64,000 nucleotides of DNA from Escherichia coli (GTDB lineage: Bacteria; Pseudomonadota; Gammaproteobacteria; Enterobacterales; Enterobacteriaceae), in the NCBI RefSeq assembly GCF_003334355.1, contig NZ_QOWP01000002.1. One strand, 5' to 3'. Below, piece by piece: positions 56,898 to 57,614 of this stretch. Each line of letters begins with the position of its first letter. The first letter of the stretch is position 1. The translations under genes were made by a program, and so were the position numbers. The notes beneath the pieces were generated by a model. That model did no database searches. It was not told the DNA's origin and saw only the letters and a program-made list of their open reading frames with translations.

Positions 56898-57614
56898 TTA
56901 TAACTCGTGTCTGTTATGGCGACACGGGAAAACATCAATATTGTCCTTCACAAATTGCAGTAATATAGAATCAACCTCTCTTGCAAGTTGGTCACAATGT
57001 ATTATAAGCATTTTGAATATGTCATCCTCTGTAATCTCGTGAAAATTTTCGGCCTTGTCTTTTAGCTCATCATATCGGATTCTTGCAGTAACCATTTTTT
57101 GGGCGAGTTCTAATAACCCCAAAGCTTGCAATTGCTGGTGAGTATGATCACTTTCAAAAAATATCCCACACTCCATTCCTTCCCAACCAACATATTCATG
57201 CCATTCATAAACCAGCATAAATGTTTGTAAAACTGGCGGTAATAATTGGATATCTGCAAAACCAAACCAAAACTTACGCTTGAGATCCCACTCATATTCA
57301 ATCGCCAATGCTATATTGTTTAAGGCATCTCCGGCATCCTTATTTTTACGCAAAATCAATTCCGTCAGTGTATAGCGTTGTTCATCAATACGCCGAAGAG
57401 CTTCTGCAATATCATAGTTTGTAGCCAACAAAACATTCTCTGCTTCCTGATGAGTGACGTCTGCTTTTGCCGTCAATATATTGATTTGGTCAATATGAAA
57501 CAACTTGATGGCTTCATCAACATCACCGCCAGTCCTCTCTAACAAACGTCTGGCAACCTGGATACCGACAGGTACGTTCTTCCGAAGTTTACGAATTTCA
57601 CTTAACCATTCCAT
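56898..57614 (-). CDS. yfbN: Uncharacterised protein with two N-terminal UBA-like / EF-Ts-N-terminal-like motifs
   Basis: 238-aa ORF. VGIQVARRLLERTGGDVDEAIKLF and THQEAENVLLATNYDIAEALRRI both fit the UBA-type pattern. AT-rich gene. Confidence 0.85.
   Translation of the reverse strand: MEWLSEIRKLRKNVPVGIQVARRLLERTGGDVDEAIKLFHIDQINILTAKADVTHQEAENVLLATNYDIAEALRRIDEQRYTLTELILRKNKDAGDALNNIALAIEYEWDLKRKFWFGFADIQLLPPVLQTFMLVYEWHEYVGWEGMECGIFFESDHTHQQLQALGLLELAQKMVTARIRYDELKDKAENFHEITEDDIFKMLIIHCDQLAREVDSILLQFVKDNIDVFPCRHNRHEL

Follow-up and report, generated by a model that had tools for sequence, protein, structure and literature searches.

The window analysed here is a stretch of 64,000 nucleotides of the Escherichia coli contig NZ_QOWP01000002.1 (assembly GCF_003334355.1), and the gene in question is yfbN, one of the remaining K-12 genes without an assigned function. 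Our data indicate that its product is predicted to be an all-helical protein made of known folds in a new combination, namely a tandem UBA-like pair, a helical hairpin and an acidic C-terminal domain which resembles DMP19 in its modelled fold. The gene now has a confidently predicted domain architecture, and it can be placed in a family that is spread over Bacteroidota and Proteobacteria. There is no Pfam or NCBIfam model for the YfbN family, and its fold and relationships are undescribed in the searchable yfbN literature. In our judgement there is about an even chance that YfbN is the E. coli member of a patchy family of bacterial proteins, cytoplasmic and all-helical with about 240 residues each, which function as non-enzymatic protein-binding factors. 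This gives a testable hypothesis, that of a protein-binding adaptor or decoy, and it removes a tempting but unsupported idea, by which yfbN would be tied to host ubiquitin and to ElaD, a deubiquitinase.

Predicted domain architecture of YfbN

The product encoded in the window is 100% identical to YfbN of K-12. The initial annotation had drawn attention to two stretches of it, VGIQVARRLLERTGGDVDEAIKLF and THQEAENVLLATNYDIAEALRRI, and both are present, at residues 16-39 and 54-76 respectively. The pattern that it gave for them is exact in unit 1 and shows one conservative change in unit 2 (V61 in place of L). The extent of the motifs has to be revised, as the quoted stretches cover helices 2 and 3 only and the full units run from about residue 3 to 40 and from about 41 to 80 (Table 1). 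Models were built with AlphaFold2 (AF2). With nine sequences the model was all-helical, with a predicted local distance difference test score (pLDDT) of 90.5 and a predicted template modelling score (pTM) of 0.77, and with 85 sequences the scores were 96.1 and 0.88 and the helices were identical (residues 4-13, 18-27, 32-51, 55-64, 69-80, 83-90 and 94-108, followed by a helical domain up to residue 224). The helix at 32-51 is continuous and common to both units, serving unit 1 as its third helix and unit 2 as its first. In these models each unit has the form of a compact three-helix bundle of about 40 residues, by which the UBA-like superfamily (UBA, CUE, TS-N and TAP-C) is recognised.

The profile of residues 1-41 was compared with that of residues 40-80 by hhalign, using the 85-sequence alignment. 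The two were found to match in register over 36-37 columns with a probability of 94.5% and an E-value of 7.9e-8, and thus the motifs represent an ancient internal duplication that has been retained across the family. Foldseek comparison with the PDB placed the TNK1 UBA domain at the top, followed by the N-terminal domains of EF-Ts, with a probability of 0.99-1.0 for these. The UBA domain of human mitochondrial EF-Ts could be superposed with a root-mean-square deviation of 0.9 Å over 41 columns and that of NAC with 0.7 Å over 36 columns, and the FAM100B UBA was matched as well.

Profile searches pointed in the same direction. Against the sequences of solved structures, the unit-2 profile matched the UBA domains of FAM100B (E 4e-4), p47 (4.2e-4), Dcn1 (1.1e-3) and Ede1 (1.7e-3), and the unit-1 profile matched the FAF1 UBA (E 0.0084) and, in register, EF-Ts (E 0.45). 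When the full family profile was used, 23 of the 25 matches were UBA-fold domains or a designed three-helix mini-protein; the former include the EF-Ts N-terminal domain, NAC and the helical C-terminus of the MurQ etherase. Pfam matches on YfbN itself were all sub-threshold (UBA_4 at E 0.0032 over residues 19-42, with UBA_HYPK and CUE weaker), and the best NCBIfam match was the UBA end of archaeal NAC (E 0.0016). Across the 85 family members UBA_4 was by far the commonest Pfam match, with E<=0.1 in 22 and E<=0.001 in one, and the next commonest were UBA_8, TAP_C, UBA_HOIP and UBA_HYPK. The UBA-like character proposed at the outset is therefore well supported for both units by a confident AF2 model, by the internal duplication and by the matching of the unit-2 profile to solved UBA domains. 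It is probable that unit 2 is homologous to the UBA clan and that unit 1 is so through the duplication.

Within the family, the consensus of unit 1 is L-R-x3-P-[IV]-G-[IL]-x2-[AG]-L-x-L-L-x2-T-x-G-[DN]-[VI]-x2-A-x2-L-F, and L10 and R11 are each retained in 77 of the 85 members. Loop 1 reads P-[IV]-G-[IL] in unit 1 and K-A-D-V-T in unit 2 (K-T-G-V-S in the family). In canonical UBA domains M-G-F/Y is found at loop 1, as a hydrophobic patch through which, together with helix 3, ubiquitin is bound by the UBA domains that recognise it.

The closest likeness to a known system is with the C-terminal 'UBA' of human TNK1 (PDB 7tcy, 9nge), where a single helix likewise runs without a break from one UBA-like bundle into the next. 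This domain was described by its authors as containing two UBA-like motifs, and it binds polyubiquitin (PMC10312729). TNK1 is eukaryotic and carries this module on a tyrosine kinase, whereas YfbN is bacterial and carries it on a DMP19-like domain, and the sequence identity is 15-29%. YfbN adds a bacterial fused double UBA-like module, which was otherwise seen in this analysis only in human TNK1. The UBA domains that gave the best profile matches, those of p47/NSFL1C, Dcn1, FAM100B/UBALD2, Ede1 and FAF1 (Pfam UBA_4 and UBA_8; E 4e-4 to 8e-3 for single units), belong to eukaryotic proteins of the ubiquitin pathway, whereas the YfbN units fall below the Pfam thresholds and occur in bacteria without a ubiquitin system. 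YfbN does not have the NEL (novel E3 ligase) fold with its catalytic cysteine.

The description of YfbN as a free-standing UBA protein was incomplete, as the UBA pair occupies only the N-terminal third. The protein as a whole is predicted to be compact and to consist of three parts, with a DMP19-like C-terminal half. The hairpin between them carries a motif that is invariant among the nine closest homologues and conserved in the wider family, and the hairpin is missing from the shorter variants P0136, P0137, P0165 and P0166. It was considered as a third UBA-like unit; in hhalign comparison with units 1 and 2 a P of just 0.003-0.009 was obtained, and it is kept here as a hairpin. The C-terminal domain contains the conserved motifs E-W-x2-Y-E-x2-E-G-F and a terminal F-P, and the near-invariant residues of the family, W138, E145 and F229, are located in it. 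It is acidic in 88% of the members, with a median net charge of -6. In one relative, P0159, the UBA pair is joined to a different C-terminus.

In the model the C-terminal domain has the all-alpha fold of DMP19. The DMP19 protein is an acidic dimer which mimics double-stranded DNA and blocks a transcription factor (NHTF) and HU (PMC3384305, PMC5722371). Neisseria DMP19 (PDB 3vjz/3wur; Pfam PF14300, formerly DUF4375) shares 12% identity with YfbN and has no UBA-like N-terminus. The comparison of YfbN with it covers the modelled fold and the net charge.

Table 1. Position of yfbN and of its predicted parts in the window
Feature	Position	Strand	Details
yfbN coding sequence	56898..57614	(-)	Open reading frame list and RefSeq E. 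coli annotation; ATG start, 238 residues plus stop
Shine-Dalgarno-like AAAGGGG	57621..57627	(-)	Sequence reading; 6 nt upstream of the yfbN ATG
UBA-like unit 1, residues 3-40	57495..57608	(-)	Predicted helices 4-13, 18-27, 32-40 (AF2 models)
UBA-like unit 2, residues 41-80	57375..57494	(-)	Predicted helices 41-51, 55-64, 69-80
Helical hairpin, residues 81-112	57279..57374	(-)	Predicted helices 83-90, 94-108; motif YTLTELILRK, family consensus T-x-T-E-R-I-L
C-terminal DMP19-like domain, residues 113-232	56919..57278	(-)	Predicted all-helical; acidic, net charge -10

The YfbN family and its gene neighbourhoods

A word-indexed search returned only 19 relatives, nearly all of them from Escherichia. 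An exhaustive search with a hidden Markov model built from nine sequences gave 235 cluster representatives, 153 of them with E<=1e-10, and most of the representatives have 230-250 residues and are matched from end to end. Superficieibacter, Leminorella, Chitinophaga, Hymenobacter, Chryseobacterium, Taibaiella, Aquimarina, Runella and an Ignavibacteria metagenome-assembled genome (MAG) are among the named sources, and the family occurs mostly in free-living Bacteroidota. YfbN had been regarded as an unusual bacterial protein. It is not an oddity of Escherichia, since about 235 representatives with the same architecture are distributed across Bacteroidota and enterics, and many bacteria of soil and gut are among the carriers.

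Some database entries have to be set apart from the family. P0100, a protein of 4090 residues with an E-value of 7.6e-27 against the YfbN profile, is not a relative, as its score is the sum of 29 weak matches, all stacked on the hairpin region. By its sequence it was read as a eukaryote-type NTPase with leucine-rich repeats (NACHT/LRR-like), and a repeat artefact of this kind could mislead automated family building. The contig JAEWTL010000023.1 (L005; 2776 bp, labelled 'MAG: Bacillota bacterium') encodes proteins with 99-100% identity to E. coli yfbP, yfbO and yfbN and ends in yfbM, and a YfbN fragment attributed to 'Streptomyces antimycoticus' in the AlphaFold database (A0ABD5JR91) is 100% identical. 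In both cases the sequence seems to have come from E. coli by contamination or misbinning.

In Enterobacteriaceae yfbN was always found between nuoN and rbn, in the window as well as in E. fergusonii, Escherichia sp. E2748, Superficieibacter and two further enteric loci. Clustering of open reading frames in 11 loci revealed no conserved neighbour outside this enteric synteny block, and the seven non-enteric loci share no neighbour family. There were no matches to PADLOC defence models and nothing significant among the PHROG phage families, where the sole match (E 0.027) was to a family of unknown function.

Possible roles of YfbN

The architecture suggests a factor that works by contact. In the models the duplicated UBA-like bundles, the hairpin and the acidic DMP19-fold domain are packed as one compact unit, and in the proposed mechanism YfbN would act as an adaptor or a sequestering inhibitor through the binding of other proteins. 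By analogy with DMP19, the acidic domain may contact a basic protein, possibly one that itself binds nucleic acid, and the UBA-like pair may supply a second protein-protein surface. Because the pair is conserved from Bacteroidota to Enterobacterales without a conserved gene neighbour, the partner is likely to be a housekeeping protein and not ubiquitin. In E. coli, yfbN is an accessory gene of the variable nuoN-rbn island which is reported to be associated with H-NS, and a functional tie to elaD is not supported.

A number of points weigh against this proposal. The mechanism is drawn from fold analogy alone, as there is neither a known nor a predicted partner for YfbN. Nor can a ligand be read from the UBA fold, since ubiquitin is bound by some domains of this fold and unrelated proteins by others. 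The profile of the C-terminal domain does not retrieve DMP19 from the PDB sequences even at E<=10, and Pfam DMP19 (PF14300) has no match in YfbN and only marginal ones (E 0.043-0.049) in three relatives, so that the likeness, as modelled, is structural only. Acidic helical domains are common, and DMP19 is defined by a dsDNA-like charge geometry, while the charge of YfbN was compared by composition. The high pTM suggests that the UBA units are packed on the rest of the protein, in which case the faces used for binding by canonical UBA domains may be hidden in part. The phenotypes in the literature are indirect, and they fit one mechanism as well as another. The expression data are counted on the side of the proposal, as indirect hints: yfbN is weakly expressed, with a base mean of 16 reads (PMC9068703), and it is up-regulated 2.8-fold upon overexpression of SlyA (PMC5797941); we read the column codes in the table of the latter study as marking an island prediction and data sets on H-NS binding.

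A special case of a sequestering inhibitor would be an orphan immunity or antitoxin-type protein, which binds a toxin directly and so neutralises it, for example a polymorphic-toxin domain or the effector of a retron or of a toxin-antitoxin system. Such a role would fit a protein that is small, cytoplasmic, non-enzymatic and of patchy distribution, and also a variable island in which the small orphan genes yfbM, yfbO and yfbP adjoin. We regard it as unlikely. Immunity genes usually adjoin their toxins in at least some genomes, whereas no toxin gene is a conserved neighbour of yfbN, nor was one seen in the loci that are long enough to show neighbours; the lack of PADLOC matches is a further point against it. 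In an overexpression screen for blockers and triggers of the retron-Sen2 RcaT toxin, yfbN is mentioned together with yfbO in the legend of Extended Data Fig. 3 and is missing from the main-text list of blockers, and the mention is ambiguous (bioRxiv 2020.06.22.160242).

It could also be considered that unit 1 is a domain of the EF-Ts N-terminal (TS-N) type, through which YfbN would bind EF-Tu or another translational GTPase and modulate translation under stress. The EF-Ts N-terminal signature is L-R-x2-T-G-x-G-[M]...K-x-A-L...G-D-I-x-x-A. The unit-1 consensus, with its retained L10 and R11, resembles this signature, EF-Ts is in register with unit 1 and is among the structural matches, and a universally conserved partner would explain the conservation of the family without conserved neighbours. 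However, the EF-Ts matches fall short of significance (E 0.29-0.45), and eukaryotic UBA domains outscore EF-Ts in every search. EF-Ts contains a single TS-N copy together with core and dimerisation domains, whereas YfbN has neither of the latter. The EF_TS Pfam model has no match in YfbN or in its 85 relatives, and YfbN cannot be counted as a member of the EF-Ts family. Deletion of yfbN was reported to raise the yield of recombinant green fluorescent protein (PMC7376861), which is a point in favour, but this phenotype is non-specific and comes from one study. A role of this kind is improbable in our estimation.

A bolder proposal joins several of these elements and should be taken as a long shot. 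The YfbN family would be a new class of bacterial UBA proteins in which a duplicated, EF-Ts-like UBA module docks on a universally conserved protein (such as EF-Tu or another GTPase) or on a bacterial ubiquitin-like protein, while the acidic DMP19-like domain mimics nucleic acid. Such proteins would be stress-responsive decoys or regulators of translation or of nucleoid proteins, and in E. coli the module could be co-opted to read host ubiquitin.

The initial annotation had further suggested a functional link with ElaD, according to which YfbN would bind ubiquitin or a ubiquitin-like protein and work with this deubiquitinase in a host-directed island. The fold itself is in favour of this suggestion, as several solved domains that are closest to it, those of TNK1, Dcn1, Ede1, p47 and TDP2, bind ubiquitin (PMC10312729), and the loop P-[IV]-G-[IL] of unit 1 has a hydrophobic-Gly-hydrophobic character at the site of the canonical M-G-F/Y. 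The geography that was described is also correct: elaD (51871-53112) is 3.8 kb distant from yfbN in the same AT-rich island, which has a GC content of 36-48% across 52-59 kb as compared to 53-58% in the flanks. Among the 980 E. coli genomes that have yfbN, at least 930 carry elaD as well.

Such co-occurrence is what would be expected from a linked haplotype and the high base rate of elaD, and the association within the species is of the kind that genes physically linked on a single clonal haplotype would show. Of 5426 complete E. coli genomes, 980 (18%) have yfbN and 4475 (82%) have elaD, the entire stretch from elaD to yfbP is found in about 930, and about four fifths of the elaD-positive genomes have no yfbN. 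The two genes are on opposite strands with three genes in between and do not form one operon. Outside E. coli, tblastn with ElaD gave no match in any of the 19 loci fetched, and no elaD was found near yfbN in the loci of other species that are long enough to show neighbours. The five enteric loci mentioned above (E. fergusonii, Escherichia sp. E2748, Superficieibacter and two others) have yfbN at the nuoN-rbn position without elaD, and in E. fergusonii and in the enteric locus L001 a cheV-like gene with CheW and response-regulator domains stands in the place of elaD. Host ubiquitin is implausible as the ligand because most of the family belongs to free-living Bacteroidota, and YfbN shows no signal peptide or recognisable secretion feature. 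The check by co-occurrence that had been proposed at the outset turned out against the functional half of the earlier interpretation, and a joint action of YfbN with ElaD on ubiquitin is very unlikely.

That the repeats are helix-hairpin-helix (HhH) DNA-binding motifs and not UBA-like modules is hardly credible. The unit-2 profile had its best whole-sequence E-values (3.6e-6) with topoisomerase V, which consists of (HhH)2 repeats in tandem, but these matches are a repeat-sum artefact of weak HhH-repeat matches and were discounted.

The yfbN locus and the rbn-nuoN interval

The order of the genes in this part of the window is elaA-elaB-rbn-elaD-yfbK-yfbL-yfbM-yfbN-yfbO-yfbP-nuoN. The AAAGGGG upstream of yfbN (Table 1) would serve as its ribosome-binding site. 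No site resembling an intrinsic terminator was found at 56626-56897, between the convergent yfbM and yfbN, and a non-canonical sigma-32 site has been located at yfbM/yfbN by chromatin immunoprecipitation (PMC3738151).

The rbn-nuoN interval (51500-59300 of the window) is a mosaic hot spot, at which other genomes carry partial sets of these genes or insertion sequence (IS) elements, and the figure of 18% given for yfbN apparently applies to the yfbN-O-P block as well. The elaD allele of the window is rare, as it is found at >=99% identity in 9 genomes only and most genomes have an allele that is 90-99% identical, whereas the yfbN of the window is found at >=99% in 953 genomes. A rare elaD allele beside a common yfbN suggests recombination within the island. 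In two porcine enterotoxigenic E. coli strains (NZ_CP122758.1 and NZ_CP122859.1) yfbN is split by an IS1 insertion, which is consistent with a dispensable gene.

With regard to the neighbouring genes, TPR repeats in YfbP were the sole NCBIfam or Pfam result for yfbO, yfbP and yfbM, and this is uninformative for yfbN. A Pfam scan of YfbO (57769-58245) found no family. The precomputed annotation of a YfbO homologue in locus L019 lists PF27222:YfbO, and a newer Pfam release seems to include a YfbO family. The homologues of RNase BN (rbn/elaC) in L001, L003 and L016 have a precomputed match to PF23023 (Anti-Pycsar_Apyc1) beside Lactamase_B_2, which probably reflects a family-level resemblance among nucleases of the metallo-beta-lactamase fold.
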